From NCBI GenBank assembly GCA_030748155.1, contig JASMMN010000024.1, positions 1-63,184 on the forward strand: 63,184 nucleotides of DNA, given 5' to 3'. The notes below the pieces were generated by a model. That model had not been told where the DNA came from. It made no database searches and was given only the letters and a program-made list of their open reading frames with translations. Every line of letters begins with the position of its first letter. The stretch's first letter is position 1. This stretch comes from Phycisphaerales bacterium (GTDB taxonomy: Bacteria > Planctomycetota > Phycisphaerae > Phycisphaerales > SM1A02). Shown piece by piece: positions 4,842 to 40,992 of this stretch. Made by a program: the position numbers and the translations under genes.

Positions 4842-4932
4842 GGGGGGCTCCAGGGGGTTGTCGTCGGCGGCAGTACATATCATCCACCCTGTAACCAGTT
4901 CCGTCAAGGCCGAAATATAGCTTCTATTGGGG

Positions 4933-4962
4933 TTGACAGGGCCATTGGCGCTCCCCGATAAT
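4933..4962 (+). promoter_or_regulatory. Sigma-70-like promoter for the catabolic operon
   Basis: TTGACA (4933-4938), 18-nt spacer, GATAAT (4957-4962). It lies about 105 nt upstream of the 5068 start in the TetR/operon divergent region. Confidence 0.5.
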
Positions 4963-4994: not shown

Positions 4995-5012
4995 CGAACG
5001 GACGTTCGAACG
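4995..5012. promoter_or_regulatory. Palindromic candidate operator (TetR site) in the operon leader
   Basis: CGAACG-GA-CGTTCG (4995-5008) overlaps the perfect 10-bp palindrome CGTTCGAACG (5003-5012). It sits between the predicted -10 and the first start codon. Confidence 0.4.
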
Positions 5013-5067: not shown

Positions 5068-6204
5068 ATGAGCATGTTTCCCACGAGAACCACCGAGTCA
5101 TTTGACTTCCAGGAAGTCGACTACCAGAAGGACGGCTTCGTCGCCCGGATCACCATCAACCGGCCGTTCAACTTCAATGCCTACAGCACACCAGCCCTCG
5201 AAGAATTGGCAACGGCCTTTCAGGATGCCTCGTGGGACGACGGCATTGCCGTCGTGGTCTTCACCGGAACCGGCCACAAATCTTTCTGCACGGGCGGTGA
5301 TGTGAAGGAGTACCAGTCCTGCTACACGCAGAAGCCACGCGACTATTGGAAATACATGTGTCGTTTCAAGGCCTATATCGAAGCGATCACGAACTGCGCC
5401 AAGCCCGTCATCGCCCGCCTCAATGGCATGGCGGTTGGCGGTGGCAACGAGAGCCAACTTGCTTGCGACATCGGCGTCATGGGCGAACACGCCTTCATCG
5501 CGCAGGTCGGCACGAGCGTGGGGTCGGTCGCCTGTGGCGGCTCGACGCAGTGGCTGCCCATTACGGTCGGCGACCGTACCGCGCGGGGCATTCTCTTCCT
5601 GAATCAGCGATACGCCGCCTTTACCAGCCTGTCGATGGGGCTGGTCAACAGCGTAGTGCCGACGGTCAAGGGACCCGACGGCGAATTCATCACGAAGTTC
5701 AGCGGCGACCGCACCTGTCTGGCCGACTGGAACACCGATCCCTGGGATACGCCCTTCGAGAATCGGGCTACCGCTGGCGACATCAAGAAGGCCCTCAAGG
5801 GTGAGGACGGCTACTCGATCGACTTCTCCCTCATGGATGAGGTGATCGACGACCTGTGCGACCAGATCGTCAACAAGTTCTTTGAATGCACCCGCTACAC
5901 CAAGGCGCAGGTCAACTATTGGAAGGACTCCGCGTGGCACGCCACCGTCGGCCATGCCCGCGACTGGCTCGCCACGCACTACACCAGCCTCGAGCCCTAC
6001 GAAGGCATGACTGCCTTTGTCGAGAAACGCAAGACCGACTACATCGGCATGCGGAAGCGGGCCGCCGATCCGAATGGTTCGAGCGAGTTTCTTTGGGGCC
6101 CATACGCGCAAGAGTGCGGTGAGTGCGGCGCGAAGGGCATGCCCTCGCAGTTCGAACACTGTGGCAGGTGCGGGGCGGTGTTGGCCGTCGCGATGACAAC
6201 CTGA
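5068..6204 (+). CDS. Crotonase-superfamily enzyme of the MenB/BadI/Oah clade (378 aa) with C-terminal zinc ribbon; candidate ring-opening acyl-CoA hydrolase
   Basis: Motifs RITINRPFNFNAYST, FCTGGDVKEY, NGMAVGGGNE and IAQVGTSVGSVACGGS (MenB-type GxxVGS loop). C-terminal CGEC-N11-CGRC. GGAG lies 9 nt upstream of the ATG at 5068. Confidence 0.8.
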   Translation: MSMFPTRTTESFDFQEVDYQKDGFVARITINRPFNFNAYSTPALEELATAFQDASWDDGIAVVVFTGTGHKSFCTGGDVKEYQSCYTQKPRDYWKYMCRFKAYIEAITNCAKPVIARLNGMAVGGGNESQLACDIGVMGEHAFIAQVGTSVGSVACGGSTQWLPITVGDRTARGILFLNQRYAAFTSLSMGLVNSVVPTVKGPDGEFITKFSGDRTCLADWNTDPWDTPFENRATAGDIKKALKGEDGYSIDFSLMDEVIDDLCDQIVNKFFECTRYTKAQVNYWKDSAWHATVGHARDWLATHYTSLEPYEGMTAFVEKRKTDYIGMRKRAADPNGSSEFLWGPYAQECGECGAKGMPSQFEHCGRCGAVLAVAMTT

Positions 6205-6234
6205 CGGGCTAGCGGCATCACAGGGAGACGCATC

Positions 6235-6978
6235 GTGGCACACACACCGAGACGAGCATTGGTAACGGGGGGGTCGAGCGGCATCGGCCGCGCGATTGCC
6301 CAGTCGCTCGCCCGTGACGGTTGCGATGTGGGCATCCTGTACCTCGGCGATCTCACAGATGCGGACTCCGTGAGATCGTGCATCGAATCACTCGGTCGCA
6401 AGACGTGGGTGAAGGTGGCTGATGTCTCCGACGCTCAGCAGGCCACAGCCGCGGTGGAGGATTGCGCTGGCGAACTCGGTGGGCTTGAAGTTCTCGTCAA
6501 CAACGCCGGCATCTGCCGCGATCAGGTGATTTGGAACATGACCGATGCGGAGTGGCAGGATGTCATCGACATCGATCTTACCGGCGTCTTCAACATGTCT
6601 CGGGCGGCGGCGCCCATCATGCGGGCAGCGAAGTATGGATCCATCGTCAACATCTCCAGCATCAACGGCATGCGGGGCAAGTTTGGCCAGACCAATTACG
6701 CCGCGGCAAAGGCTGGCGTCATCGGATTCACCAAGGCGCTCGCCAAGGAGTTGGCACGATCCACCGTGACCGTGAACGCCGTCGCGCCGGGGATGATCCA
6801 CACGCCCATTCTCGATGCCATGCCTCCCGAGGCAATCAAGAAGGCGACCGAGGAGATTCTTGTTGGCCGCATCGGCACACCCGAGGACATCGCCGAAGCA
6901 GTGCGCTTCCTGTGCAGCGAAGGAGCGAGATTCATCACCGGCGAAGTGCTTCGGGTAGACGGCGGGCAGTACATCTGA
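6235..6978 (+). CDS. Short-chain dehydrogenase/reductase (FabG/BadH-like hydroxy/oxo-acyl reductase)
   Basis: Motifs TGGSSGIGRAIA, NNAG and YAAAKAG (YxxxK). GTG start with GGGAG 7 nt upstream. Confidence 0.88.
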   Translation: MAHTPRRALVTGGSSGIGRAIAQSLARDGCDVGILYLGDLTDADSVRSCIESLGRKTWVKVADVSDAQQATAAVEDCAGELGGLEVLVNNAGICRDQVIWNMTDAEWQDVIDIDLTGVFNMSRAAAPIMRAAKYGSIVNISSINGMRGKFGQTNYAAAKAGVIGFTKALAKELARSTVTVNAVAPGMIHTPILDAMPPEAIKKATEEILVGRIGTPEDIAEAVRFLCSEGARFITGEVLRVDGGQYI

Positions 6979-6992
6979 AAAGGAATGATGAC

Positions 6993-7763
6993 ATGACCGA
7001 CTACCAGTACTTCACATGCGACATTTCCGGCGGCGTCGCCACGGTCACCATGAACCTTCCCCCGTTGAACGTCATGGACAACCCCATGATGTCCGAGTTC
7101 AACACACTCCTTGACACTCTGGTCGTGGACGACACCTTGTCTGCAATCGTGATTGCCGCCGAAGGCAAGGCCTTCAGCGCGGGCGTGGACGTCGCGGATC
7201 ACACGGCTGAGAAGGTTCGTGACATGATCGAGCAATTCCACGGCATCTTTCGCCGGCTCGCGTCCACCGATGCGCTCACCATTGCGGCCGTTCAGGGTGC
7301 TGCGCTCGGTGGCGGATGCGAACTCGCCTGCTTCTGTGACATCGTGCTCGCCTCGGAGCGGGCCAAGTTCGGGCAGCCTGAAGTTCATGTTGGCGTCTTC
7401 CCACCGGTCGCTGCGGTGGTGTTGCCGTCTCGCATTGGGCTCGGCAAGGCGATCGAACTCGTGTCGCTCGGCGGCACGATTTCGGCGACCGAAGCCCATC
7501 GGATCGGCCTCGTCAGTCAGTTGTACGTCGCAGACGAGTTCGACGACCAGGTTGCGGCCTACGTTGAGGACATCCGGGGCCTCTCCCGTCCCGTTGTGCG
7601 GATGGCAAAGCGGGTCACCATGGCCGGGCAGCGAGCGGACATGCTCAATCGGCTCGACGAGGCCGAAAAAATCTACCTCGATGAATTGATGCAACTCCAC
7701 GACGCTCACGAGGGCATCGCGGCATTCATGGAGAAACGAACCCCCGAGTGGAGCCACGCCTGA
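6993..7763 (+). CDS. Enoyl-CoA hydratase/isomerase family (256 aa); candidate dienoyl/enoyl-CoA hydratase (Dch/BadK-like)
   Basis: Motifs KAFSAGVDVADH, GAALGGGCELACFCD and FGQPEVHVGVFPP. ATG at 6993 with AAGGA 9 nt upstream. The longer track ORF (6531) runs through the SDR gene. Confidence 0.85.
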   Translation: MTDYQYFTCDISGGVATVTMNLPPLNVMDNPMMSEFNTLLDTLVVDDTLSAIVIAAEGKAFSAGVDVADHTAEKVRDMIEQFHGIFRRLASTDALTIAAVQGAALGGGCELACFCDIVLASERAKFGQPEVHVGVFPPVAAVVLPSRIGLGKAIELVSLGGTISATEAHRIGLVSQLYVADEFDDQVAAYVEDIRGLSRPVVRMAKRVTMAGQRADMLNRLDEAEKIYLDELMQLHDAHEGIAAFMEKRTPEWSHA

Positions 7764-7801
7764 GGGCCGGTTGGGCACATCAGAGAAAAGAGAACCGAAC
7801 G

Positions 7802-8824
7802 ATGAAAGCAGCAGTATTCCACGGCGCCGACGAAGGCGTGAGAGTCGAAGAGATCCCGGTCCCGCATGTTGGACGGGACGAGGTGCTCGTCAAGGTTGCC
7901 GCCTGCGGGGCCTGCCATACCGACCTGCACTACATCGAGCACGGCGTGCCGACCTTCAAGGATCCGCCGCTCGTGCTTGGCCACGAAGCGTCCGGTATCG
8001 TCGAGGAAGTCGGCATCGATGTCGAACATCTCACCGCGGGGCAGAGGGTGCTTATCCCCGCGGTACTCACCTGCGGCAAGTGCAGGTTTTGCCGCATGGG
8101 CAAGGAGAATATCTGTGCCGACATGAAGATGCTCGGCAACCACTTTGACGGCGCCTACGCCGAGTATGTCTGCGTACCCGCCAAGGATGTGCTTGATCTG
8201 CCCGAGTCGATTCCGCTTGCCGAGGCATCGATCATTGCCGACGCGTTATCGACGCCGTACCACGCCGTCAAGAACCGAGCACAGGTGCGGGCCGGCGATT
8301 CCGTGGCCGTCTTCGGATGTGGAGGTGTTGGCATCAACGCAGTGCAACTTGCGGCCGCGGCTGGCGCTTACGTGATTGCGGTCGATATCAGTGAGCAGAA
8401 ACTTGAGTGGGCCAAGGAACTCGGCGCGGCGCAGACCATCAACGCCCACCAGGTCGATCGGGTGAGCAAGGCAATCAAGAAGATGACTGGTGGTGGTGTC
8501 GATATCGCCATGGAGGTGATCGGTAACCCGCGGACGATCGAAGAAGCGTTCGAGAGCGTGCGAATCGGTGGTCGGATGTGCGTCGTCGGGTACACGCATG
8601 AGAAGATCAACATTGTCGCCGGGAAGATCATGTTCAAGGAGATGGAAATTGTCGGTTCGCTCGGATGTCCTCCGGGCGAGTATGTCCCGCTCATTCGCAT
8701 GGTCGAGGCCGGGAAGATCGATGTATCTCGCCTCGTGACGCACCGGTTCTCACTTGACGATATTCAGGGCGCATTCGATGTAATGAAGGACGGCTGCTCC
8801 CTGCGGTCGATCGTAATTCCGTGA
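7802..8824 (+). CDS. Zinc-dependent alcohol dehydrogenase family (340 aa); candidate 6-hydroxycyclohex-1-ene-1-carbonyl-CoA dehydrogenase (Had-like)
   Basis: Motifs CGACHTD, GHEASGIVEEVG, structural-Zn CGKCRFCRMGKENIC and FGCGGVGINAVQ. Confidence 0.85.
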   Translation: MKAAVFHGADEGVRVEEIPVPHVGRDEVLVKVAACGACHTDLHYIEHGVPTFKDPPLVLGHEASGIVEEVGIDVEHLTAGQRVLIPAVLTCGKCRFCRMGKENICADMKMLGNHFDGAYAEYVCVPAKDVLDLPESIPLAEASIIADALSTPYHAVKNRAQVRAGDSVAVFGCGGVGINAVQLAAAAGAYVIAVDISEQKLEWAKELGAAQTINAHQVDRVSKAIKKMTGGGVDIAMEVIGNPRTIEEAFESVRIGGRMCVVGYTHEKINIVAGKIMFKEMEIVGSLGCPPGEYVPLIRMVEAGKIDVSRLVTHRFSLDDIQGAFDVMKDGCSLRSIVIP

Positions 8825-10065
8825 GCGACACGACGGTGAAGCGAGTACCCATCGAGTCGCAGAAGCGCCTTCGAGGCCTGATGCGTGACTACTTCGTTGA
8901 CCTCGACGCGGCGGCCAAAGACACTGATCGCCGCGTTGCGTGGTGTACATCGGTCGGTCCTACGGAGATTTTGACCGCTTTCGGCTTCGACGTGTTCTTC
9001 CCGGAGAACCACGGCGCCCTCCTCGGCACGCGGAAAGTCAGCCACAAGTTGATCCCCCGGGCGGTGGGGGCGGGGTACTGCCCCGAGACCTGCTCTTACA
9101 TGAACAGCGATATCGGCGCATCGCTCAACGGTTGGAGTCCGCTGCAGGACATCTACGGCATAGACGGACCGCCCGCGCCCGATCTGCTCGTGTACAACAC
9201 GAACCAGTGCCGGGAAGTGCAGGACTGGTTCAAGTTCTTCTCGACACGGCACGACGCTTCAATTCTGGGGGTGCGGCCACCGCTGTATCTCGGAGAAGTC
9301 ACCGACGAGCATGTCACCTTCGTGAAGGGGCAACTTCGGGAACTCATCGGTGCGATCGAGCGTCAGTTCGAATTGAAACTCGATGAGGCGAAACTCGAAG
9401 AGTCCGTCGCGAAGTCGAGCAAGGCCTGTTCGCTTTGGCGGGAAGTACTCGAAACGGCCCGCCAGAGACCGGCCCCACTGAGTTTCTGGGACGGCTTGAT
9501 CCTGATGGCGCCGGTGATACTGATGCGTGGAAGCGATATGGCCATCGACTTCTACGAAGAAATGCTTGCTGAGATGAATCAACGGCTTGCTGGTGGCGTC
9601 GGAGCCGTGCCTGATGAGCGGTTTCGCATCTACTGGGAAGGGATGCCCGTCTGGCCCCGGATACGGGAACTTTCCGAGAAGTTCTTTGATCTTCGGGCGG
9701 TCGTGGCGGCGAGCACCTATTGCAACTCGTGGGCCTTCGCCGACTTCGAGGGCGGCGACCCGCTTGAGTGGATGGCGCGGACGAGTCTGGAGATCTTCAT
9801 CAATCGCGATGAGGTGTACAAGCAGCAGTTCCTGTCCGAGAGGTTCGACGAGTTTTCGATTGACGGCGCCATCTTCCACAACGCCCGGACATGCCCGAAC
9901 AACACCAACTCACGCTTTGGAATGGCTCAGCGGGTTCGTGAGGAGATGGGCCTGCCGGTTCTTGTCCTCGATGGAGACCTGACCGATATCCGGTTCTTTT
10001 CAACCTCGCAGTCGATGACCAATATCGAAGCCTTCATTGAGCAGTTGGAGGCACATCGCTCATGA
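8821..10065 (+). CDS. 2-hydroxyacyl-CoA dehydratase / benzoyl-CoA reductase (HgdAB/BcrBC) family protein, single copy (414 aa)
   Basis: Family-typical RRVAWCTSVGPTEILTAFGFDVFFPENHGA. Seven Cys including C42, C87, C91 and C130. GTGA overlap with the upstream stop. Confidence 0.8.
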   Translation: MSDTTVKRVPIESQKRLRGLMRDYFVDLDAAAKDTDRRVAWCTSVGPTEILTAFGFDVFFPENHGALLGTRKVSHKLIPRAVGAGYCPETCSYMNSDIGASLNGWSPLQDIYGIDGPPAPDLLVYNTNQCREVQDWFKFFSTRHDASILGVRPPLYLGEVTDEHVTFVKGQLRELIGAIERQFELKLDEAKLEESVAKSSKACSLWREVLETARQRPAPLSFWDGLILMAPVILMRGSDMAIDFYEEMLAEMNQRLAGGVGAVPDERFRIYWEGMPVWPRIRELSEKFFDLRAVVAASTYCNSWAFADFEGGDPLEWMARTSLEIFINRDEVYKQQFLSERFDEFSIDGAIFHNARTCPNNTNSRFGMAQRVREEMGLPVLVLDGDLTDIRFFSTSQSMTNIEAFIEQLEAHRS

Positions 10066-10910
10066 GTGGCGTCCTCTTTGCCGGTATCGACGCTGGATCC
10101 TCGGCCACCAAGTGTGTCATCATCGACGATAGGGGCACATTGGTCGGGAAGAGCGTCGTGTCCTCGGGGTTCAGTTACGAGGATGCGGCCAAGACGGTGC
10201 TGGGTGAGGCGTTGGCCGAAGCCGGGAGGTCGTCTGGGGACATCGAGGCATGTATCTCCACTGGGTACGGACGGGAGTGGGTTCCAGATGCCGGGCGGAA
10301 GATCACCGAGATCACCTGTCATGCCCGTGGCGCTCTTGAGTGGTATCCGCAGGTCCGCAACATCATCGACATCGGTGGTCAGGACACCAAAGTCATCCGT
10401 CTCGACACGACCGGGCAGATTTCTGACTACCGCATGAACGCCAAGTGCGCCGCAGGAACCGGAACATTTCTCGAATCCATCGCCGTGAAACTCGGCATGA
10501 CGCTTGGCGAACTCGACGAGCTCGCCGCGCAATCTGAGAAGCACGCCGTCATCAACAGTTATTGCACCGTCTTCGCCGGGACCGAGGTGCTTGAGTGCAT
10601 CAAGGCCGGCGAGGATCCCAAGGACATTGCCCGCGGATTGTTTCACTCGATCGCCTCGCGGCTCTTTGAGATGATTGTCTCCCATGACGGACCGGTGGCG
10701 GCGACGGGCGGCGTGGTGGCGCACTGCGGCTCGATGCGTGTGGCGCTCAACGAAGTGCTTGATGATGAAGTGTTGCTTCCGCCGCTTCCTCAGTTCGCGG
10801 GGGCCTTTGGTGCCGCGCTCATGGCCAACTCCGGCCACGCACACGAGCCGTTTGGCGAGCGGCCTGCGCCGCCGTGCCGGTTCTCGACCGAAGGGAGCGG
10901 CCAATGTTGA
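10062..10910 (+). CDS. BcrAD/BadFG/HgdC-family ATPase (electron-activating component, 282 aa)
   Basis: Motifs GIDAGSSATKCVII, DIGGQDTKVI, NAKCAAGTG and YCTVFAGTE (cluster-ligand Cys positions). ATGA overlap with the upstream gene. Confidence 0.88.
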   Translation: MSGVLFAGIDAGSSATKCVIIDDRGTLVGKSVVSSGFSYEDAAKTVLGEALAEAGRSSGDIEACISTGYGREWVPDAGRKITEITCHARGALEWYPQVRNIIDIGGQDTKVIRLDTTGQISDYRMNAKCAAGTGTFLESIAVKLGMTLGELDELAAQSEKHAVINSYCTVFAGTEVLECIKAGEDPKDIARGLFHSIASRLFEMIVSHDGPVAATGGVVAHCGSMRVALNEVLDDEVLLPPLPQFAGAFGAALMANSGHAHEPFGERPAPPCRFSTEGSGQC

Positions 10911-14317: not shown

Positions 14318-15564
14318 GCGACCAGAGTGCAACATCATTCGTGATTTCAGGTGCCGCCCGGACACCCGTGGGCGTCAAGTGTGGCACGCTCAGCAACTTC
14401 TCTCCCGAGGATCTCGCGGTCGCGGCGGCGAACGAATCTATCAAGCGGGCAGGAATAGAGCGTGATTGCATTGATGCCACCTACGGCGGCAACGTCTATC
14501 AATTCACCTCGCCGGGGGGGCAGGACATCTACTTCCCCCGCAATGTCGCACTTCGGTGCGAGTTACCGATCGATACACCATCGCTGCTCGTACAGCGAAT
14601 CTGTGGTTCAGGTTTCCAGACGGTCGTCAGCGCCATGCATCAGATTGCCATGCCGTCGTCAATGGACGACACAAGAGTTGCGCTGTGCTTTGGTGCCGAG
14701 ACCATGTCCAGGGCTCCGCGGCTGAGCAGGGCGCCCCGCCTCTCCGGAGCGGATTTCTGGGAGTTCGGATCCAACGGTACGCTCGAGGACACGATTCTCG
14801 CCGGTCTCAACCATGACCTCTTCAATACCAGCATGATGGTGACAGCCGATGAATACGGCCACAGCGTCGGTGTGACGCGCGAAGAGTGCGACGCCTTCGC
14901 CGAAGAGTCGCACCGCCGGGCGAGAGAAGCCAACCGAGTGAGTCACCTCAACGGCGGCGATGCCCTCCGGGGCATGTTTGCCTTCGAGGCGGACAACCTC
15001 GCGGGCGAGCCGGTCTACCTCGCCCACGATGAGTGTGTGCGTGACACAACTCTTGACGAACTGTCCAGGCTTCCAGGGTTTACACCCAACGACCTTGTTT
15101 CGCCGGGCAACGCCAGCGAGATCAGCGATGCCGCCGCTTCGCTCGTGGTAGCGGATCGGTCGCGAGCCGAGAAACTTGGGATTTCGACTCGTTTTGAAAT
15201 CGTCGGCTATGGCATCGCGGGCGTCGAGCCGCGGTTGATGGGTCGCGGGCCAGTACCCGCCATTCACCGTGCGCTTGAGCGAACGGGCCTGTCGATAGAT
15301 GACATCGGCCTGTGGGAAGTCAACGAGGCTTTCGCCGCCCAAGCAGTTGGTGTGCAGAAGGAACTCGGACTCGACAGCGAGAGACTCAACGTGAACGGCG
15401 GCGCGGTTGCTATCGGGCATCCCCTTGCGGCGACCGGGGCGAGACTACTTGTGGACCTCATGTACGAAATGGAACGACGAGGAGAGCCGCTCGGATGCGC
15501 CTCTGCCTGCATCGGTGGCGGCCAAGGCATCGCCGTCATCATCAGAGACACCCAACGGGATTGA
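14314..15564 (+). CDS. Acetyl-CoA C-acyltransferase (thiolase)
   Basis: Motifs RICGSGFQ (active-site Cys), [20 protein letters not shown] and [13 protein letters not shown] overlap with the upstream gene. Confidence 0.9.
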
Positions 15565-15588
15565 GTCCCAATTACACGGAAGCAAGCC

Positions 15589-18066
15589 ATGAAACAAGCA
15601 TTCCACTACGGCAACAAGACGATTGACCCCGCTGTCAAACGGGTCAATGCCATCAAACGCGTGGCGGTGATTGGCGCAGGAACCATGGGCCAGGGCATTG
15701 TCATCGATCTGCTGCTCAAGACCGAGGCCGAGGTCGTAGTGCTCGACATCAACGACGCCTCGCTTGGGCGAGCCAAGAAGACAATCTCCGGACGTTGGAA
15801 GGGCGATGTCCAGGGCTTCCGGTTGCGAGCCGAAGATGTCGAGTCTATGGAAGCGAGGACCATCTACACAACCGACTATGCGGAACTGGCCGGATGCAAC
15901 ATCATCTGGGAGGCTGTCACCGAGTCGGTTGATGTAAAGTCGAAGATCTTTGCGATTATCGAAGAGACTGTCGCGCCGGAAGCCGTCGACGCGATCTTCT
16001 CGAACACGTCCTCGCATACCACCGAGGAACTCGCGGTACTGTTCACATCCGAGGTGTTTCGTAGCAAACTGCTGACCGTTCACGGGTACTTCCCCTTTGA
16101 GGCGAACCGGCTCATCGATGTCATGAAGGGGAAGTACGCCTCTCGCGAAACCTTCGACTTTGGTGTTGTCTTTGCCGATCAGATTCTCGAGAAAACCGTG
16201 ATCGCGATGCCGCGTGATCACCACGGCTACATCACCGACCCCATCTTTCAAGGCATGGGCGCCATCGTGTCGTGGGACGTGCAGAGTGGTGACGACATCG
16301 TGATTCGCGGCGGTGTCTGGAATCTCTTCACGGCCAACCCCTTCACCGTGCTCGATCAGACCGGTCACATGCCATACACCGAATCGTCAAGGCATCTCGG
16401 CGCGGCGCTCCCGGCACATGATCGTCTGCGGTGCCTCTACAGCCGGGACGGCAAGGCCATTCCGGACTGGATTGCTGAATTGGAGTCACGTGGCTGCGGT
16501 GGCGTGAATTCCAAGGAGGGCAGTGGCTTCTTTCGGTGGAGCGAGGGCAAGCGATCAAAGCCCGCGCAGGTCTTCGACCCCAAGAGCGGCGACTATGTTG
16601 ATATCTGCGGAATCTCCCGCGATGAATACTGGTCGTGGTACGAGGCTGCCGAGCGAGATCGCCGGGCCGGAAAAATCAAGAGCGCCGATTCGATCGTCCA
16701 TGTGGCCAACGCCGACGATCTCGGCGGACGGTGCTTCCGTCGGTACGTGCTTCCCATCGCGCTCTACATGCTCGACCTTGTGCAGGATGGCTACGCCACG
16801 CCCGGGCAGATCAATATCTGCACGCGGGCAGGGCTTCGTTTCAAGGTAGGCATTATCGAGATGATCGATGCATTGATTGCGGAGTTCACCATCGATGGGC
16901 TGTTGCAACTGGTCCGCAGGGCCGCCGACGAGAATGCCGACGACCCATATGCCACCGAATTACTTGATACCGATGGGAAGATCGGGCCACGCACTGGCAA
17001 GCCATGCCTGCTGCATGAAATGAAGAAGCGGGGAATCGACCGGCTTCTCGGGTACGGAACGGCCTATTGCACGCCTGTTGCCGAACTTGACCTCAAGAGC
17101 GGCACCTACGTGGCCTGCTATCCGGACCTGAAGTTCGTGGGGCCCAACCCGAAGGATCGCGTCGCAAGCATCATCTTCAACTCACCGATGCGAGGCAATG
17201 TCTTCAACCGGGCGGCGGTCGATCAACTTGGCCACGCCTACCGCCGTGCGCTCGACTTGCACCGTGAGGGCAAGTGTGGGGCGGTCGTGTTTACCGCTGC
17301 GGGTACCGGCATGCGAATGCTCGGAGCCGACGCCCGTGAGTTCAATCGCGGCTGGTTTGAGCGGGACCGCGGGTACGCCCCGCTAACCGAAATCGAAGCG
17401 GCCGCCTCCAGCAAAAATGCCGTTGGGCTCTTCCGGCTCATCCAGACCAGCCCGCTCGCCACCATTGCCGTGTTCGGGGAGAAGTGGGGCGGCGGAGCCG
17501 AGTTCACCTACTTCTCGGATTTGCGTTTCGATGTTCGCCAATACGGATTTGTGTACGACACGCTTGAGCGAGTGTCCAAGTGGCAGCAGAAGAACACCTA
17601 CAACCAACCCGAGCTCGACTACGCCATACTTCCCGGCTTCGGCGGGGCGGGCGAGTTGAAACGACTTGGAATGGGCGACTCGATCATCTTCGAACTCTTT
17701 GACTGCGGCATGACCGCAGACCGCGCCTATCAGGTCGGGCTCACAAACGGCATCTTTGATGAGGAGGTCGATGCGCTTCGCCGTGGGTATGAGTCAGCCC
17801 GCCAGATGGCGAAGGACGCGCCCTACTCGCGAGCACTCTTCAAGAAGGAGTTGCAGCGAGGTATTGACGACGAGGCCCTCGCCCGCGAGACCGGCGAGAC
17901 CTTCAATCCCGAGAAGAATCCATTCATCCGTTCTGGCCTCGTGAAGTTGCTTGACCGCGGCGCGAGGCCACCGAAGATGGATTACTCATGTATCGGCACC
18001 GAGTTGCCGGGTTGGACCTATCCCGAGGACAGCACGCAGTGCACCTGCGGGGAGTCATGCTCATGA
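15589..18066 (+). CDS. Bifunctional 3-hydroxyacyl-CoA dehydrogenase (N-terminal) / enoyl-CoA hydratase (C-terminal), 825 aa
   Basis: N-terminal [13 protein letters not shown] Rossmann motif. C-terminal crotonase fold ([35 protein letters not shown]). Cys-rich tail. Confidence 0.85.
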
Positions 18067-19223
18067 CCGTTTTCAACGAATGGGGAGGCGAACCCCTCGA
18101 CGAGATCATGTACCACTGCCGGGAACTCGTAGAGGACACGACGTTCCCCACCATCAAGCGGTGGCGTGAGCAGGGCGGAAAGACGCTCGGACACTTTCAA
18201 GTGTATTTCCCAGAGGAACTCGCACATGCGGCGGGCATGATGCCCGTCAAGATGTGCGGGACGATGCTCGAGCCGAACAACGCCGATTCTCATTTCGGAT
18301 CCTACCTCTGCTCGATCATCAAGACCTCGCTCGAAGCAGCCCTGTCAGGCGGCATTGAACTCGACATTTTCGTGTCGCACCCAATCTGTGACGCGGCCCG
18401 GAATCTCGCTGCAATCTTCGGTCGGAACTTCGACTATCCGTGTCAGATTCTCTACCTGCCGCAGAATCCAAACTCGGTGGCCTCGGCGGACTGGCTTTCT
18501 CAGGAATACGGTCGCATGCGTCGGTTGATCGAAGAAATCGTGGGCCACGAGGTGAGCGACGAGGCGATCTCTGTGTCAATCGAGGTGTTCAACGAGAACC
18601 GCCGGTTGATGCGGGAACTCTACGAGATCAAACGCGAGGCGCCTTGGCTTGTGACCGCCGACGAGGCATACGCCCTTGTCGCCATCGGCGGCGTGATTCC
18701 CCGAGAGGAGCACAACGATCTGCTTTCGTCTGTGCTTCCGATGCTTCGGGAGCGGGAGACGCGGCGAGAGGATCGTATTCGCGTGGTTTTTGAGGGCGCC
18801 TTCTGCGAGCAGCCGCCGCTCGACCTTGTACGGATGCTTGGTCGCACCTGCTATGTCGTCGATGACGACTTCTTGATCGGCATGCGGTATCTCCTCGAAG
18901 ATGTGCCGGTGACGGACAACCCACTGTTGTCCCTGTCAGAGGCGTACATCGAACAATCCAGTTACAGCCCGGTACAGCATGACAACCGCAAGCCCAAGGA
19001 GGACATGCTCCTGCAACGGATCAAGGAGTCGCGGGCAGACGCCGCCATCGTGGCGGCTGCCAAGATGTGCGAGCCGGGGCTTGAGGAGCAAGTCGCCTAT
19101 ATCCACATGCTCGATGACGAGAAAATCCCGTACTTCGTCAGTGAATTCGAAGAGAACATGAGTTCGTTCGATCAACTTGAACTCCAGATTGAGACATTCC
19201 TGGAGAACATCCTCTTTGCCTGA
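18063..19223 (+). CDS. Benzoyl-CoA reductase subunit C-like (BcrC/BadD/BzdN family, 386 aa)
   Basis: FPTIKRWREQGGKTLGHFQVYFPEELAHAAGMMPVKMCG and SHFGSYLCSIIKTSLE match the BcrC-type N-terminus. ATGA overlap with the upstream stop, with GGGGAG upstream. Confidence 0.8.
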   Translation: MTVFNEWGGEPLDEIMYHCRELVEDTTFPTIKRWREQGGKTLGHFQVYFPEELAHAAGMMPVKMCGTMLEPNNADSHFGSYLCSIIKTSLEAALSGGIELDIFVSHPICDAARNLAAIFGRNFDYPCQILYLPQNPNSVASADWLSQEYGRMRRLIEEIVGHEVSDEAISVSIEVFNENRRLMRELYEIKREAPWLVTADEAYALVAIGGVIPREEHNDLLSSVLPMLRERETRREDRIRVVFEGAFCEQPPLDLVRMLGRTCYVVDDDFLIGMRYLLEDVPVTDNPLLSLSEAYIEQSSYSPVQHDNRKPKEDMLLQRIKESRADAAIVAAAKMCEPGLEEQVAYIHMLDDEKIPYFVSEFEENMSSFDQLELQIETFLENILFA

Positions 19224-19242
19224 TGGCGGGAGCACCAATCAG

Positions 19243-20553
19243 ATGACTACCGAAACACCAAGCACATGCGACATTGTTGGACGCGGAAACCGTGACGGCG
19301 CGCAGTTGTTCCGAGACTGGTTCACAGAACTCGGCGAGACGGCGGAGAAAGGTGAACAGTCCGCCTATGTGTTCGTGATGGGCAGCATGAATGAAATCCT
19401 CAAGACCTTCGACTTGCCCGTCGTATTCCCCGAGATCAACTCGTTGCAGACGGCCGTTCGCCGTGTTGCAGGCGACTTTCTGAGTGAGGCCGAGGACTAC
19501 GGCTACTCCCCCGACATCTGCGGATACGTCAAAGCCGACGTGAGTGTGCAACTCCGTGGCGGTGAGCATCCCATGGGCCGTATTCCCAAGCCGAGCATCG
19601 CCGTACTGACCAACGCCTGCAACACCTACGTGAAGTGGGCCGAGATATGGGAGCGGATGCACGGGTGTCCGATGTTCACACTCGATGTACCTGGAACTCG
19701 ACAGGCGGGAACGCAGTCTTGGCCAGGCGATCAGGATTTCGAAAACGACAGGCGATACGTCCAGAAGCAGATATCGGAACTCATCACGCTGTGCGAACAG
19801 GTCACCGGCAAGAAGTTCGACATCGACAAGTTCCGGGAGATTCTCCGTCACGCCAACACCATGAGCGTCGGTTGGAGGCGGGTCATCGAGGCCAATAAGG
19901 CCCGGCCCGCACCCTTCAACGCGTTGACGGACGGCACGATCTTCCTTGGCGTGGCCAACGGCTTCCGTGGAACCAGGGAGGGTGCCGATTACTTCAACGA
20001 TCTGGTCGAGGAGATGGAGTACAAGGCCACCAACGGCATCGGCGCGCTTGCCGAGGAGATTTACCGGCTCGTCTTCATCGGCGTGCCGTGCTATCCGATC
20101 TTCCGGAGATTCAACGAACTCTTCAGTGAGTGGGGTGGTTCGTTCATCAACTCCACGTATCTGTGGTTCGCATCGGGCGGCACGAATCTCGGCTTTGAGT
20201 ACGACTTGGCGAAACCGCTTGAGAGCATGGCGGAGGGTACGCTCATCAATGTGCGCGACGCGATGGACAGCATGTTTCATCAGGATCGGATGCTCGTGGA
20301 CATGGTGGACGACTATGCGGTCGATGGCGTCGTCTACCACCCAATCAAGAGTTGCCGTACGGTCTCGACGGGCCTTGCGGACAGCCGGGGGTATTTTGCC
20401 GCGAAGAAGGACATCCCGAGCCTCTTTGTCGAGTCGGACATGATGGATTCGCGGGTGATTTCCGAAGCACAGATGAAGAACAGAGTCGACGCTTTCTTTG
20501 AGGGCCTGGCGTCGCGCAAACAGAAGGCCGCGATTGCGGGCAAGGAGAACTGA
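19243..20553 (+). CDS. Benzoyl-CoA reductase subunit B-like (BcrB/BadE/BzdO family, 436 aa)
   Basis: LPVVFPEINSLQTAV and EDYGYSPDICGYVKADV are typical of BcrB/BadE. ATG at 19243, 20 nt after the upstream stop. Confidence 0.8.
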   Translation: MTTETPSTCDIVGRGNRDGAQLFRDWFTELGETAEKGEQSAYVFVMGSMNEILKTFDLPVVFPEINSLQTAVRRVAGDFLSEAEDYGYSPDICGYVKADVSVQLRGGEHPMGRIPKPSIAVLTNACNTYVKWAEIWERMHGCPMFTLDVPGTRQAGTQSWPGDQDFENDRRYVQKQISELITLCEQVTGKKFDIDKFREILRHANTMSVGWRRVIEANKARPAPFNALTDGTIFLGVANGFRGTREGADYFNDLVEEMEYKATNGIGALAEEIYRLVFIGVPCYPIFRRFNELFSEWGGSFINSTYLWFASGGTNLGFEYDLAKPLESMAEGTLINVRDAMDSMFHQDRMLVDMVDDYAVDGVVYHPIKSCRTVSTGLADSRGYFAAKKDIPSLFVESDMMDSRVISEAQMKNRVDAFFEGLASRKQKAAIAGKEN

Positions 20554-20556
20554 TTC

Positions 20557-21375
20557 ATGGCCTACGCAGCAGGAGTGGATGTTGGATCGACGCAGACCAA
20601 GGCGGCCATTGTCGATGAAGATCGCAAGATTGTTGCTACGGCGCTGATCGATACCGGATCAAATGTGGTGGCCGCAGCCGAGAACGTCTTCGAAAAGGCG
20701 CTCAAGGAATCCGACATCGCCAACGAGGAGGTCGAGTATGTGATCGGCACGGGCTATGGACGGTATCGCGTGACGTTCGGCAACGATCAGGTGACGGAGA
20801 TCAGTTGTCACGGGCGCGGAGCGGTACACATGTTTCCCAATACCAGAACCGTCGTTGACATGGGCGGTCAAGACACCAAGGCCATCAGAATCGGTGAGAC
20901 GGGTGAGATCGAAGACTTCTGCATGAATGACAAGTGCGCCGCCGGCACCGGCCGATTTCTCGGCGCAGCCGCGGCGGCCTTGGATCTGACGCTTGACGAT
21001 CTTGGTCCTACCGCCCTTCGATATACGAAGCCTGTCAAGATCAGTACGACCTGCACGGTCTTTGCCGAGTCCGAAGTGTTGTCGTGGCTTGGCAAGGGCA
21101 AGAAGGTCGAGGACATCCTCTGGGGTGTGCATGAATCCATCGCCACGCGATCGGCGGGTCTCATGCGTCGAGTCGGTATTCAGGACGAGATCACTTTCAC
21201 CGGCGGCGTGACCCGAAACATCGCCATGGTCAAGGCACTCGAAGAGCGGCTCGGCAAGAAACTGAATATCAGCGACGATTCACATTACATGGGGGCGCTC
21301 GGGGCGGCGCTCTTCGCCATGGATCGCATCATTGCATCTCGGCAACCCCACGCCAGTGCGGAGGCAGCACAATGA
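20557..21375 (+). CDS. Benzoyl-CoA reductase ATPase subunit (BcrA/D, BadF/G, BzdP/Q family, 272 aa)
   Basis: Motifs [33 protein letters not shown] and CTVFAESE. Confidence 0.85.
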
Positions 21376-22193
21376 GTATCACCATTGGAATCGACGTCGG
21401 TTCAACCTATACCAAGGCGATCGCCGTTGACGATCAGGGTTCTATCCTTTCCACTGACGTCCGCCACACCGGTTTCAAACTCGACAAGGTGTCAACCGAT
21501 GCCTGGCAGGCGTGCATCGAGAAGGCCGGGCTTGCACAGGATGACATCGACTACACCGTTTCCACCGGAATCGGACGGCATCGCTGTGTGGTCAAGGACA
21601 TCCATGTGACCGACTTGACAGCGAGCGCTCGTGGCGCAATCCGATTGTTCCCGGGCACCCGTACCGTTCTGGATGTAGGCGGCCAGACCATGAAGGCGAT
21701 TCGGATCGAGGAGGACGGCAAGGTGAAGTCCTTTCGACTCAACGACAAGTGCGCGGCCGGTACCGGGGCCTTCCTTGAGAAAACTGCCCGCTACATGGGA
21801 TATGGAACAAAGGAGATCGGCCCGCTGCTGAGTACCGCCAAGGATCCGGCGGAGATCTCAGGCGTGTGCGCAGTCTTCGCTGAGTCCGAGGTCATCAACC
21901 AGTTGTCACTTGGTACGCCTCCTGCGGACATCATGCAGGGCGCTATCGAGTCGCTGGTTGTTCGGTGCGTACAACTCATGAAGCGGGTGAAGGCCGAACC
22001 CGAATTCACGCTCATTGGTGGCATCATGCACTTCAGCACCGTTCCTGGAGAAGTGACGCGGCAACTCGACCATGAGGTCAATGTTCCGGAAGGCGAGATG
22101 TGCATGTTCACCACATCGCTCGGTGCCGCAATCCTCGGGCACCGCCGCCTCGCGAAACTCGCTGAAGAGGAAATGGCCGTTCCGGCTGGCTGA
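21372..22193 (+). CDS. Benzoyl-CoA reductase ATPase subunit, second copy (273 aa)
   Basis: Motifs [33 protein letters not shown] and [12 protein letters not shown] overlap with the upstream ATPase gene. Confidence 0.85.
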
Positions 22194-22465
22194 TGCGGGT
22201 TGACTTGACCATCGGCGGATGCGGCGAGGGCGGTGGAGACTCCTTTTCCATCAACGACGACCCCGCGCTGGTCGCTGACGGATGGGAACGCCGCCAACTG
22301 GTCGATCCCAACCGCGCCAAGGAAGCGACTGAGTTGTACGAATCACTCGGCTTCGAAGTGTTCGCCAAGACACTCGAAGACTCCGATTTCGGTGACGACT
22401 GCAAGACCTGCGCGGTGGCGGGGTGTCAAGGCTTTGTGATTATCTACACACGAAGAACTCGCTGA
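22193..22465 (+). CDS. Hypothetical 90-aa four-Cys protein translationally coupled to the reductase genes
   Basis: TGATG stop/start overlap at 22191-22195. Cys in GGCGEGG and DDCKTCAVAGCQG. I recognise no family. Confidence 0.5.
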   Translation: MRVDLTIGGCGEGGGDSFSINDDPALVADGWERRQLVDPNRAKEATELYESLGFEVFAKTLEDSDFGDDCKTCAVAGCQGFVIIYTRRTR

Positions 22466-22574
22466 GCGTTGCTCGTCTCCTCTTCTTCATGGAGAGGCAG
22501 GAAGGCATGCAATCAAGCGCGTCCAGATTTCTCTCTCCCCCCCGGGAGGAAAATGTCAGCGAAGCCGCGAACAA

Positions 22575-23756
22575 CTAGAACGCCGCGTGCCCGGTGAGTT
22601 CTCGACCGACGACCAGCTCGTGGACTGTCTCGGTTCCCTCGTAGGTAATCTCGCTCTCGAGGTTGAGCATGTGGCGAATCGGGCAAAACTCAACGCTGAT
22701 GCCGCTGGCACCGAGCATGTCCCGGGCGTCGCGGGCGATGTCGATGGCGAGCCGGGTGTTGTTCCACTTGGCCATCGAAACTTGGCTGTGGTGCACCGTG
22801 CCGGCATCCTTCATGCGGCCAAGCTGCAGAGCGAGCAGTTGCCCGGTCGTGATGCGACGGGCCATGTCCGCGAGCCGAAGCTGAATGGTCTGTGTGTGTG
22901 AGAGCGGACGGCCGAAGAGCTCTCGAACCTTGGTGTACTCCAAGACCTCCTTGAAGCAGGCTTGCGCGGCGCCGAGCACGCCCCACGCAATCCCGTATCG
23001 TGCCTGAGTGAGGCAACTCAATGGGCCACGAAGCCCGTGAATTTCTGGGAACATGTTCGCATTTGGCACGCGGACATCGTCGAAGAAGAGTTCACTGGTA
23101 ATGGACGCCCGTAGCGAGAACTTGTGTTCGATGTCTCGAGTGCGGTAGCCCGCCATGTCCTTCTCGACAAGGAAGCCGCGAATTCCTTCATCGGTTGCCG
23201 CCCAGACGACCGCGACATCGGCGATCGTTCCGTTGGTGATCCACATCTTGGACCCATTGAGAATCCAATCGTCTCCATCGCGTGTGGCGGTCGTCGTCAT
23301 GGCACCCGGGTCCGAGCCGCCGTTCGATTCGGTCAACCCGAAACAGCCAATGGCTTCACCCCGCGCCATCGCTGGCAACCACCGCTGCTTCTGTTCTTCG
23401 GTGCCGTAGGTGAAGATCGGATACATGCACAGGCTGCCCTGCACTGAGACGAAACTGCGAATGCCAGCATCACCACGCTCGAGTTCCTGATTGACCAGTC
23501 CATAGCAGACATGGCTCAACCCGCCACAGTCGTACCCGTCGATATTGCATCCGAGCAATCCCATTTCGGCAATCTCGGGGACGAGTTCTTTCGGGAAGCG
23601 ACCTTCTTCGAAGGCATCGGCCACCACGGGGATCACGCGATCATCAACAAAGCGAGCGACCGCGTCCTGAATGGCCTGTTCGTCTTCGTCGAGCAGGTGG
23701 TGAACGCAGAAGAAGTCCATGGCGCTGGGCGAGACGGCGGTTGCTGCGGTGGTCAT
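22575..23756 (-). CDS. gcdH: Glutaryl-CoA dehydrogenase
   Basis: Acyl-CoA dehydrogenase fold with GCDH-typical strings: YGLVNQELERGDAGIRSFVSVQGSL, GEAIGCFGLTESNGGSDPG, KMWITNG and C-terminal ELTGHAAF. Confidence 0.85.
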   Translation of the reverse strand: MTTAATAVSPSAMDFFCVHHLLDEDEQAIQDAVARFVDDRVIPVVADAFEEGRFPKELVPEIAEMGLLGCNIDGYDCGGLSHVCYGLVNQELERGDAGIRSFVSVQGSLCMYPIFTYGTEEQKQRWLPAMARGEAIGCFGLTESNGGSDPGAMTTTATRDGDDWILNGSKMWITNGTIADVAVVWAATDEGIRGFLVEKDMAGYRTRDIEHKFSLRASITSELFFDDVRVPNANMFPEIHGLRGPLSCLTQARYGIAWGVLGAAQACFKEVLEYTKVRELFGRPLSHTQTIQLRLADMARRITTGQLLALQLGRMKDAGTVHHSQVSMAKWNNTRLAIDIARDARDMLGASGISVEFCPIRHMLNLESEITYEGTETVHELVVGRELTGHAAF

Positions 23757-23872
23757 CGGGGGAATGCCTTGTGTGCGGAGTCTTCACGAATCAGGATATG
23801 CGTGTCATAATACAGTTCTCTGCTGCGGCGGTACGCTGTGTCAGCCCCGGTACTTGCAGGAGTGTTTCGAAG

Positions 23873-40719: not shown

Positions 40720-40992
40720 TCAGCGAGTTCTTCGTGTGTAGATAATCACAAAGCCTTGACACCCCGCCACCGCGCAGGTCTTGCAGTCGTCACCGAAATC
40801 GGAGTCTTCGAGTGTCTTGGCGAACACTTCGAAGCCGAGTGATTCGTACAACTCAGTCGCTTCCTTGGCGCGGTTGGGATCGACCAGTTGGCGGCGTTCC
40901 CATCCGTCAGCGACCAGCGCGGGGTCGTCGTTGATGGAAAAGGAGTCTCCACCGCCCTCGCCGCATCCGCCGATGGTCAAGTCAACCCGCAT
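40720..40992 (-). CDS. Hypothetical 90-aa four-Cys protein (mirror copy)
   Basis: Exact mirror of 22193..22465. Confidence 0.5.
   Translation of the reverse strand: MRVDLTIGGCGEGGGDSFSINDDPALVADGWERRQLVDPNRAKEATELYESLGFEVFAKTLEDSDFGDDCKTCAVAGCQGFVIIYTRRTR

Follow-up and report, generated by a model that had tools for sequence, protein, structure and literature searches.

The window considered here, a 63,184-bp stretch of DNA (positions 1 to 63,184 of contig JASMMN010000024.1 in the Phycisphaerales assembly GCA_030748155.1), holds a TetR-controlled catabolic island of an uncultured Phycisphaerae bacterium from an oxygen-minimum zone, for which anaerobic degradation of aromatic carboxylic acids via benzoyl-coenzyme A (benzoyl-CoA) or a close analogue, by the mechanism set out below, is proposed with a probability of about 0.72. 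The core of that route, which would run from CoA activation through para-dehydroxylation, ATP-driven ring reduction, ring opening and beta-oxidation to a glutaryl-CoA dehydrogenase (GcdH), is judged very likely on comparative grounds; the unusual feature of the island is the acid that enters the pathway and not this core. An earlier reading of the same DNA, made from its letters alone and referred to below as the original prediction, had described positions 5068-23756 as an operon for anaerobic aromatic or alicyclic acyl-CoA degradation. Its class I reductase core is retained here, while its suggestions of an unusual single-operon arrangement, of a BadH-type route and of a ring substrate other than benzoate are not. 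The full island extends beyond those coordinates and occupies positions 406-25440.

The ring reductase and the pathway around it

Evidence for the ring-reducing step comes from four adjacent genes, G10 to G13 (Table 1), whose products carry the Pfam domain HGD-D twice and BcrAD_BadFG twice, the four-subunit composition of class I enzymes, and which are predicted to form an ATP-dependent class I aryl-CoA reductase of the 3-methylbenzoyl-CoA reductase (MBR) type. The scores of G10 and G11 against MbdN and MbdO of the structurally solved MBR (542 and 549 bits) stand against 113-135 bits to the 2-hydroxyacyl-CoA dehydratase subunits (HadC 135 bits for G10, HadB 113 bits for G11) and about 101 bits to BzdN and BzdO (101 bits for G10 with BzdN). 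It had been suggested that these BcrC-like and BcrB-like proteins belong with the reductases, and the comparison bears this out; a grouping with the dehydratases of amino-acid fermentation, which had been named beforehand as the result that would refute the idea, is not what is found for G10-G13. In BzdO the substrate-facing [4Fe-4S] cluster is held by E65, C95, C128 and C380 (PMC11971306). The corresponding Glu and Cys residues are all found in G11, the four columns being invariant in an alignment that includes true BzdO. Close homologues of G11 (73-93% identity) abound in metagenomes and come from Planctomycetota, Anaerolineae, Gemmatimonadota, Acidimicrobiia and Zixibacteria.

The products of G3, G4 and G1 resemble the hydratase (Dch), dehydrogenase (Had) and ring-cleaving hydrolase (Oah) that process a dearomatised ring, Had being the 6-hydroxycyclohex-1-ene-1-carbonyl-CoA dehydrogenase. 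For G1 the NCBIfam scores are 208 bits to Oah (cut-off 464), 151 to BadI and 143-150 to MenB, while for G3 the Dch score of 158.9 bits (cut-off 292.5) is about level with the 169.6 bits of a generic enoyl-CoA hydratase model; G4 is conserved at 72-94% identity across related loci. The assignment of the three to a dearomatisation set, as originally proposed, holds in that Dch, Had and Oah are their best or near-best NCBIfam families and in that they travel with reductases in other phyla: G3 is syntenic with a reductase there, an Mbd-like reductase has genes of the G1, G3 and G4 types beside it in an Anaerolineae and an Acidimicrobiia genome, and their orthologues also adjoin true BzdNOPQ in Phycisphaerae. 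G1 further carries a C-terminal, zinc-ribbon-like CxxC-x11-13-CxxC tail (6070-6204), which 54 of 55 orthologues share, an Anaerolineae protein among them, and which lies outside the part aligned to TIGR03200 (residues 24-333).

The remaining enzymes would serve beta-oxidation. The short-chain dehydrogenase/reductase (SDR) encoded by G2 had been thought to suit a BadH-type route; it looks instead like FabG/PhaB, with 269 bits to an acetoacetyl-CoA reductase model, and BadH is not among its best 25 NCBIfam families, so that a role as 3-hydroxyacyl-CoA dehydrogenase, for instance on 3-hydroxypimelyl-CoA, is presumed. In the G9 fusion Pfam places 3HCDH_N at residues 25-209, 3HCDH at 385-471 and ECH_1 at 523-765 (the last a weak match of 35 bits), a domain order opposite to that of FadB. 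The convergent GcdH gene scores 445 bits to the glutaryl-CoA dehydrogenase 3swo against 189 bits to 3mpi, a non-decarboxylating enzyme from Desulfococcus; its identity, already proposed as the final step of the pathway, is thereby borne out, and it is predicted to be of the canonical decarboxylating type.

The original prediction placed everything in a single operon, which does not hold, since genes for an HcrA-like molybdenum (Mo) enzyme, an XdhC-family factor and a MocA-like protein flank the operon and are conserved with it. The large Mo subunit (Pfam Fer2, Fer2_2, Ald_Xan_dh_C and MoCoBD_1/2) reaches 902.5 bits on the HcrA model TIGR03194 (cut-off 994.6), the next family scoring 583; its best PDB match is HcrA itself (1rm6_A, 574 bits, the next being 342), and it is kept at 66-94% identity beside the operon in related loci. 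The gene of the flavin adenine dinucleotide (FAD) subunit overlaps that of the large subunit by 4 nt. Its product matches best the medium chains of CO dehydrogenases in the PDB (CoxM and CutM, 124 bits), whereas HcrB is reached at 52 bits (query 121-284 on HcrB 160-312) and TIGR03195 at 106 bits against a cut-off of 404. The island enzyme and HcrABC (PDB 1rm6) have the 2x[2Fe-2S], FAD and Mo-cofactor modules in common, with XdhC and MocA-like genes lying near the island enzyme; in the latter, however, the gamma part is fused to alpha, and the CoxM-like FAD subunit is without the [4Fe-4S] insertion seen in HcrB. Because of this missing loop the reaction direction and the electron donor of the Mo enzyme are uncertain, and either may differ from those of 4-hydroxybenzoyl-CoA reductase. 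The MocA-like protein is predicted to act in synthesis of the molybdopterin cytosine dinucleotide cofactor, and the real start of the XdhC-family gene probably lies downstream of 23741.

Taken together, these families suggest the following sequence of events. TetR would bind CGAACGnnCGTTCG just downstream of the promoter and be released by an aryl-CoA; the synthetase domain of G7 would form the CoA thioester, and the HcrA-like Mo enzyme would take off a para-hydroxyl group. G10-G13 would then reduce the ring to a dienoyl-CoA at the expense of ATP, with an electron donor encoded elsewhere, after which G3 would hydrate the dienoyl-CoA, G4 oxidise the product and G1 open the ring to 3-hydroxypimelyl-CoA. 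Shortening of this intermediate to glutaryl-CoA would fall to G2 or G9 together with G8, GcdH would convert glutaryl-CoA to crotonyl-CoA, and G9 with G8 would finish the conversion to acetyl-CoA.

Several observations weigh against this reading. All four NCBIfam equivalog cut-offs for the Bcr subunits are missed (bits/cut-off: BcrC 245/421, BcrB 217/487, BcrA 218/578, BcrD 146/313), the first of these hits being that of G10 on TIGR02263 (cut-off 421), with no separate Mbd-type model among the NCBIfam hits for the reductase subunits. The cut-offs for Dch, Had and Oah (TIGR03189, TIGR03201 and TIGR03200) are likewise missed by G3, G4 and G1. To these must be added the absence, in the alignment of the FAD subunit to HcrB, of the [4Fe-4S] insertion that defines HcrB, and the absence of the ferredoxin motif CxxCxxCxxxC from every real open reading frame (ORF) of the unique half of the window described below; a 2x[4Fe-4S] ferredoxin had already been reported missing from the operon. 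Neither a ferredoxin, nor a 2-oxoglutarate:ferredoxin oxidoreductase (KGOR), nor a transporter is encoded in the window. In the same vein, the reported lack of a benzoate-CoA-ligase-type enzyme is borne out, the sole CoA ligase being of the FadD/long-chain type. The proteins that fall below the Bcr, Dch, Had and Oah cut-offs are best regarded, on their scores, as paralogous clades rather than strict orthologues. The island would share reaction logic and enzyme families with the benzoyl-CoA pathway of Thauera aromatica and Aromatoleum (BcrCBAD or BzdNOPQ, Dch, Had, Oah and GcdH), from which it differs in that its proteins lie below all of these equivalog cut-offs and in that its Oah-like enzyme bears a C-terminal zinc ribbon.

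Organisation and control of the island

The operon consists of 14 ORFs on the plus strand (5068-22465), in which neighbours overlap or are separated by at most 38 nt. The overlaps GTGA at 8821, ATGA at 10062, ATGTTGA at 10904, ATGA at 14314, 18063 and 21372, and TGATG at 22191 were all found where the original prediction had placed them, and the other junctions have gaps of 30, 14, 38, 24, 19 and 3 nt. The divergent TetR gene (4188-4907, minus strand) and the convergent GcdH gene (22575-23756, minus strand) are likewise both real, and Pfam agrees with every family that had been named. Two of the starts are backed by homologues: GTG at 8821 for G5, whose homologues of 413-414 aa (amino acids) keep the motif KRVPIE, and ATG at 10904 for G7, in which M1, L2, G5, G8, H10, P11 and P12 are invariant.

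A sigma-70-like site at 4933-4962 is the sole strong promoter-like site on the plus strand upstream of or inside the operon, none having been found on that strand within it. Just downstream of it lies the palindrome CGAACGgaCGTTCG. Of 52 related loci, 38 carry the motif CGAACGnnCGTTCG between TetR and G1, with 39 hits inside such intergenic regions against 1 in all remaining locus DNA, an enrichment of about 3000-fold, and this palindrome is likely to be the operator of the TetR protein. The regulator is encoded by the first gene of a divergent TetR-FAD-Mo transcription unit, 21 nt from the FAD-subunit gene. A PDB search with it gave matches of a generic TetR-family kind, with no MbdR by name among the 60 listed.

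Table 1. Features of the island and its control region, with positions in the window (aa, amino acids; KPR, ketopantoate reductase)
Feature	Position	Strand	Basis
Mo hydroxylase large subunit, 961 aa, with fused N-terminal 2x[2Fe-2S] domain	406-3291	-	HcrA-like (alpha + gamma)
Mo-enzyme FAD subunit, 292 aa, CoxM/XdhB-like	3288-4166	-	Pfam FAD_binding_5 + CO_deh_flav_C
TetR-family regulator	4188-4907	-	Pfam TetR_N + TetR_C_24; same position in related loci
Sigma-70-like promoter, TTGACA-18-GATAAT	4933-4962	+	11/12 consensus positions; upstream of G1
Predicted TetR operator, palindrome CGAACGgaCGTTCG	4995-5008		Just downstream of promoter
G1, Oah/BamA-like ring-cleaving crotonase, 378 aa	5068-6204	+	TIGR03200 (Oah) top hit
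G2, SDR of FabG/PhaB type, 247 aa	6235-6978	+	Pfam adh_short_C2; TIGR01830, 282 bits
G3, enoyl-CoA hydratase, candidate dienoyl-CoA hydratase (Dch-like), 256 aa	6993-7763	+	TIGR03189, 158.9 bits
G4, Zn-dependent alcohol dehydrogenase, Had-like	7802-8824	+	TIGR03201 top hit, 256.5 bits (cut-off 338.7)
G5, lone HGD-D protein, 2-hydroxyacyl-CoA dehydratase alpha-like (substrate-binding)	8821-10065	+	HadB best family
G6, stand-alone activase ATPase, HgdC/HadI type	10062-10910	+	TIGR00241, 220.5 bits (above cut-off 125.4)
G7, three-part protein, 1137 aa	10904-14317	+	KPR-like fold about 60-385; DUF2889 422-498; FadD-type acyl-CoA synthetase 581-1117
G8, thiolase, 416 aa	14314-15564	+	Pfam Thiolase_N + Thiolase_C; TIGR01930, 325 bits (cut-off 240)
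G9, fusion of N-terminal 3-hydroxyacyl-CoA dehydrogenase and C-terminal divergent crotonase, 825 aa	15589-18066	+	
G10, aryl-CoA reductase subunit, MbdN/BcrC-like	18063-19223	+	PDB 9g87_B (MbdN), 542 bits, residues 4-385
G11, catalytic aryl-CoA reductase subunit, MbdO/BcrB-like	19243-20553	+	PDB 9g87_A (MbdO), 549 bits
G12, reductase ATPase subunit, MbdQ-like	20557-21375	+	PDB 9gai_D (MbdQ), 409 bits
G13, reductase ATPase subunit, MbdP-like	21372-22193	+	PDB 9gai_C (MbdP), 278 bits
G14, uncharacterised family GW..R...Y...CxxC...YTR, 90 aa	22193-22465	+	Next to Mbd-type cassette
Glutaryl-CoA dehydrogenase (GcdH), convergent	22575-23756	-	Best PDB matches are glutaryl-CoA dehydrogenases, 445, 434 and 380 bits
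XdhC-family maturation factor	23741-24811	+	Pfam XdhC_CoxI + XdhC_C; NF045664, 213 bits
MobA/MocA-like nucleotidyl transferase	24808-25440	+	Pfam NTP_transf_3; TIGR03310 (MocA), 98.7 bits (below cut-off 186)
Mirror copy of the island	37745-62779	-	Palindromic-contig artefact (almost certain)

The window as a whole is its own reverse complement, with 0 mismatches about an axis at 31592|31593, and this spacer-less perfect palindrome of 63 kb, with arms of 31.6 kb, is almost certainly an assembly foldback artefact. Only positions 1-31592 (31592 bp) are therefore unique sequence, the operon at 5068-22465 (plus strand) being mirrored at 40720-58117 (minus strand). Past the island, between 25692 and 31596, lie genes that look unrelated to it, namely those of a sugar transferase, an RlmL-like methyltransferase, an extracytoplasmic function (ECF)-type sigma factor (minus strand), a saccharopine dehydrogenase-like protein and a GFO/IDH/MocA oxidoreductase, the last of which (30529-31596) is the final gene of the unique half and crosses the palindrome axis. 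A search with Rfam found no family in the unique half.

Conservation of the island and its exchangeable reductase cassettes

A locus scan with one genome per species yielded 80 loci, and gene content was compared in a tblastn matrix; homologues of G7 and G11 supplied the genomic context. The loci come almost exclusively from metagenome-assembled genomes of Phycisphaerae/Planctomycetota recovered from oxygen-minimum zones, groundwater, sediments and other anoxic sites, and the backbone of the island is found in about 70 species-level genomes of these groups; the closest locus, in Phycisphaerales ETNP7_MAG_7, shows 82-94% protein identity (79% for the FAD subunit). This backbone is fixed, with the Mo subunit, the FAD subunit and TetR on one strand and G1, G2, G3, G4, (G5, G6), G7, G8 and G9 on the other.

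What follows G9 is variable, being one of three unrelated class I cassettes or none, and four types of locus can be distinguished, in which G5 and G6 were counted only where the locus covers the G5-G6 interval. In type A (14 loci) an Mbd-like cassette 65-93% identical to that of the window follows G9, with G5/G6 in 12/12; in type B (25 loci) the cassette belongs to a Bcr-like clade about 38% identical to it, with G5/G6 in 23/23; type C (9 loci) has a true Bzd-type cassette and type D (5 loci) no reductase in the locus, G5/G6 being found in 0/9 and 0/5, respectively. The pair is thus present in 35/35 loci of types A and B and in 0/14 of types C and D, counts that ignore phylogeny. That the Bzd-type cassettes are genuine is indicated by the type C locus L033, which passes the equivalog cut-offs (bits/cut-off: BzdN 476/454, BzdO 693/449, BzdQ 444/380). 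Because different reductase types are swapped within one backbone, the central intermediate is taken to be benzoyl-CoA or a close analogue. The idea that the real substrate may not be benzoate is therefore not upheld as far as the ring is concerned, true BzdNOPQ in the sister slot making benzoyl-CoA or a near analogue the most likely ring substrate.

The small protein G14 goes with one cassette type. It was found in 16 loci, all with an Mbd-like cassette, comprising 13 of the 14 Planctomycetota ones (the fourteenth, L039, ends shortly past the reductase genes) and 3 from other phyla, and in none of the Bcr-like or Bzd-type loci examined. The family directly follows Mbd-type reductase genes in at least four phyla (for example L006:13202-13510, L007:12940-13188 and L008:12952-13230). 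G14 has no Pfam or NCBIfam match; its family comprises 460 representative clusters, with G30, W31, R34, Y49, C70, C73 and R87 invariant. The protein had been described as having four Cys, which is true of the copy in the window, whereas only one CxxC pair is invariant in the family; a 4-Cys iron-sulfur protein was considered and rejected on account of this single conserved pair.

Further differences between loci were noted. An extra thiolase gene lies between G2 and G3 in 13 of the 14 loci with a Bzd-type cassette or no reductase. Loci without a reductase include those of two complete genomes, CP070744.1 and CP070827.1. In the type D locus L001 (Phycisphaerales, CP070744.1) the region right after the G9 orthologue (17710-21820) encodes a small ferredoxin, a three-gene 2-oxoacid:ferredoxin oxidoreductase, a family III CoA-transferase and a Na+/dicarboxylate-type symporter. 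A hemerythrin-domain protein, which may be linked to oxygen sensing or to protection of the oxygen-labile reductase, is encoded after the cassette in a Bcr-like Planctomycetota locus (L002:21501-22064) and in an Anaerolineae locus (L006:13568-14101). An outlier Planctomycetota locus, L072, has a 661-aa flavoenzyme resembling old yellow enzyme and FadH (Oxidored_FMN + Pyr_redox_2) directly after G7 (13530-15515) and, downstream of its Mo enzyme genes, an HGD-D paralogue of 488 aa (878-2344) accompanied by an activase; orthologues of G1 and G4 were not detected in this locus.

The entering acid and the meaning of the island

The three components that had been singled out as extra, namely the HGD-D/ATPase pair G5 and G6, the three-part ligase G7 and the small protein G14, retain 56-90% identity in dozens of species. 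G5 scores 192 bits on the HadB family (equivalog cut-off 750), 139 on BcrB and 88 on BzdO, with 156 bits to HadB and 110 bits to MbdO among PDB chains, and in the alignment it keeps the Glu and the three Cys of the substrate-side [4Fe-4S] cluster. The residue equivalent to BzdO His131 is Val in G5 but Tyr in G11 and in the Bcr-like B subunit; in HadB it is Ala (PMC11971306). The best 120 homologues of G5 with a source name are all from Planctomycetota, Phycisphaerae or Phycisphaerales. G6 belongs to Pfam BcrAD_BadFG, and the motifs KCAAGTG and CTVFA are visible in it. Both genes are tied into the operon, G4 to G8 being joined by four start/stop overlaps.

For G7, the DUF2889 and synthetase parts were assigned by Pfam, and the N-terminal residues 1-395 were modelled separately; with the full-length model, Foldseek hits to the ligase domain dominate and are uninformative for the N-terminus. 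The model of residues 1-395 has a predicted template modelling score (pTM) of 0.72, and its top 40 PDB hits in Foldseek are all ketopantoate reductases (KPR) or D-mandelate dehydrogenases (E from 6e-8 to 6e-5, target-normalised TM score 0.45-0.65). The N-terminus of G7 is thus predicted by the model to have a fold like that of KPR and D-mandelate dehydrogenase, the link being one of fold only. The motifs EFDKA...LNVGG, TSSVKD and NEEW of G7, which by eye may resemble active-site motifs of KPR, were not used as evidence. No function was found in the literature for DUF2889. G7 has more than 200 full-length homologues, and where a source is named it is nearly always Planctomycetota/Phycisphaerae.

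It is a tentative possibility that G5-G7 form an entry route for 2-oxo or 2-hydroxy acids modelled on that of the (R)-2-hydroxyacyl-CoA dehydratases. In such a scheme the trio of G5, G6 and the KPR-like domain of G7 would lead from a 2-oxoacid to an (R)-2-hydroxyacid, a 2-hydroxyacyl-CoA and an enoyl-CoA; phenylpyruvate or 4-hydroxyphenylpyruvate, for example, would give an aryl-lactyl-CoA and then cinnamoyl-CoA or coumaroyl-CoA, which G9 and G8 would beta-oxidise to benzoyl-CoA or 4-hydroxybenzoyl-CoA. More doubtful is the complete version of this idea, an undescribed Phycisphaerae entry in which a KPR-like/DUF2889/AMP-forming ligase and a single-subunit, ATP-activated, HadB-like radical dehydratase would convert aromatic 2-oxo or 2-hydroxy acids derived from Phe or Tyr to cinnamoyl-CoA or coumaroyl-CoA for beta-oxidation, para-dehydroxylation by the HcrA-like enzyme without the FeS loop, and ring reduction. 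The clostridial dehydratases (HadBC with HadI, HgdAB with HgdC, FldBC with FldI) offer a partial parallel, in that G5 is alpha-like, G6 is a stand-alone activase, and a 2-oxoacid-reductase-like fold and a CoA-activating domain adjoin them. They differ from the island in that the latter has one HGD-D protein and no beta subunit, an AMP-forming ligase in place of a CoA-transferase, a KPR-fold domain fused to that ligase and a context of respiratory aromatic degradation, not fermentation.

A number of findings tell against the entry route. A beta partner for G5, that is, a second HGD-D protein, is missing, the overlaps from G4 to G7 leaving no room for one, and the same is seen in relatives; G10 was considered for this role and found unlikely, since G5 does not co-vary with the cassette type. 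A sequence profile of the N-terminus of G7 did not find KPR in the PDB, and Pfam ApbA_C was reached only at E = 0.16. The first 60 residues of G7, where the dinucleotide-binding loop would be expected, have a predicted local distance difference test score (pLDDT) below 50. Finally, every one of the 14 loci whose reductase is of the Bzd type or missing keeps G7 while lacking G5/G6, so that G7 does not need the pair.

The chief rival to the entry route sees in G5/G6 another ATP-driven radical enzyme besides the reductase, directed at the ring or at a substituent of it, for instance in dehydroxylation or on an alternative aryl-CoA, and functionally tied to the Bcr/Mbd-type reductases. The distribution of the pair speaks for it (12/12 Mbd-like, 23/23 Bcr-like, 0/9 Bzd-type and 0/5 reductase-less loci, with G7 kept in all of the latter two), and the Glu and three Cys of G5 are common to the catalytic subunits of reductases and dehydratases. 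It is nevertheless unlikely: the association ignores phylogeny and could be explained by one lineage event, G5 is nearer to HadB than to any reductase B subunit, and it lacks the His or Tyr that reductases have at the BzdO His131 position. Moreover, beyond the closest relatives, the identity of G5 to the window protein is 66-77% in Mbd-like and Bcr-like loci alike, across cassette types that are only about 38% alike, which argues against physical pairing of G5 with G10.

It is still less probable that the island encodes a plain mbd-type pathway for methyl- or halo-benzoates, as in Azoarcus sp. CIB or Thauera chlorobenzoica, with the extra genes as incidental passengers. The four reductase subunits are indeed closest to MbdNOQP, and a TetR regulator with upper and lower pathway combined in one operon matches the mbdO-orf9 operon of Azoarcus sp. 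CIB (PMC4424350). The likeness to the mbd cluster (Azoarcus/Aromatoleum sp. CIB, regulator MbdR) thus comprises a four-subunit ATP-dependent reductase (278-549 bits), a single operon that holds the lower-pathway genes together with those of the hydratase, dehydrogenase and hydrolase, and a TetR gene beside it. However, Bcr-like or true Bzd-type cassettes occupy the same slot in sister loci, which implies that the backbone is not tied to an MBR-specific substrate; the window lacks the MbdA-type ligase, ABC transporter, MbdM ferredoxin and KGOR of the mbd cluster; and passengers would not be expected to be kept at 56-90% identity over dozens of species. The island adds to the mbd set the HadB-like/activase pair, the KPR-DUF2889-ligase fusion, the HcrA-like Mo enzyme and the small CxxC protein, its host belongs to the Planctomycetota and not to the Betaproteobacteria, and its predicted operator is CGAACGnnCGTTCG.

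Degradation of alicyclic acids such as cyclohexanecarboxylate by BadH, BadI and BadK, rather than of aromatic rings, is highly improbable. Although G1 also scores on BadI (151 bits) and the operon includes an SDR as well as several crotonases, it also encodes all subunits of an ATP-dependent ring reductase, which is conserved, the Oah score of G1 (208 bits) exceeds that to BadI, BadH lies outside the best 25 families for G2, and no cyclohexanecarboxyl-CoA dehydrogenase is encoded, GcdH being the sole acyl-CoA dehydrogenase. Least credible of all, with next to no probability, is a role of G5, G10 and G11 alike as 2-hydroxyacyl-CoA dehydratases in amino-acid fermentation, with the crotonases as generic beta-oxidation enzymes, for although all three proteins carry the HGD-D domain and the Dch score of G3 is no better than its score on a generic hydratase model, this reading is already contradicted for G10-G13 by the roughly 540 bits of G10/G11 to MbdN/MbdO against 113-135 to HadB/HadC, by two heterologous ATPases that match MbdQ and MbdP and by bona fide BzdNOPQ in sister loci, and could apply to G5 only.

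The arrangement of the genes in a single operon, which the original prediction held to be unusual, has precedents. In the mbdO-orf9 operon the genes of both pathway halves, upper and lower, are already united under TetR control (PMC4424350), and the thn operon of strain N47 is likewise a large single operon (PMC12016498). The latter, for naphthalene, also encodes a class I-type aryl-CoA reductase and many beta-oxidation-like enzymes (PMC12016498), in contrast to the island with different enzymes, a bicyclic substrate and no Mo enzyme, HadB-like pair or fused ligase. The novelty of the island lies in its host group and in the exchange of reductase cassettes, and also in an HcrA-like enzyme that lacks the FeS loop, a HadB-like enzyme with a single subunit, the ligase in three parts and the small protein associated with MBR.

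What is known of anaerobic aromatic degradation by way of ATP-dependent ring reduction was established in Proteobacteria, and full-text literature searches returned only passing mentions that tie Phycisphaerae to benzoyl-CoA metabolism. A complete and regulated pathway island in about 70 species-level genomes of Phycisphaerae/Planctomycetota would widen this host range. The presence of three reductase types in one slot of a fixed backbone constitutes a natural experiment, indicating that the types are functionally interchangeable. The dehydratase-like radical enzyme that seems to do without a beta subunit, the three-part ligase, the HcrA relative without the FeS loop and the CxxC protein found only with MBR are targets for biochemistry. 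If the entry route were true, it would provide a new link of amino-acid or phenylpropanoid carbon to the benzoyl-CoA hub, and planctomycetes would be significant anaerobic degraders of aromatic amino-acid or phenylpropanoid carbon in oxygen-minimum zones.

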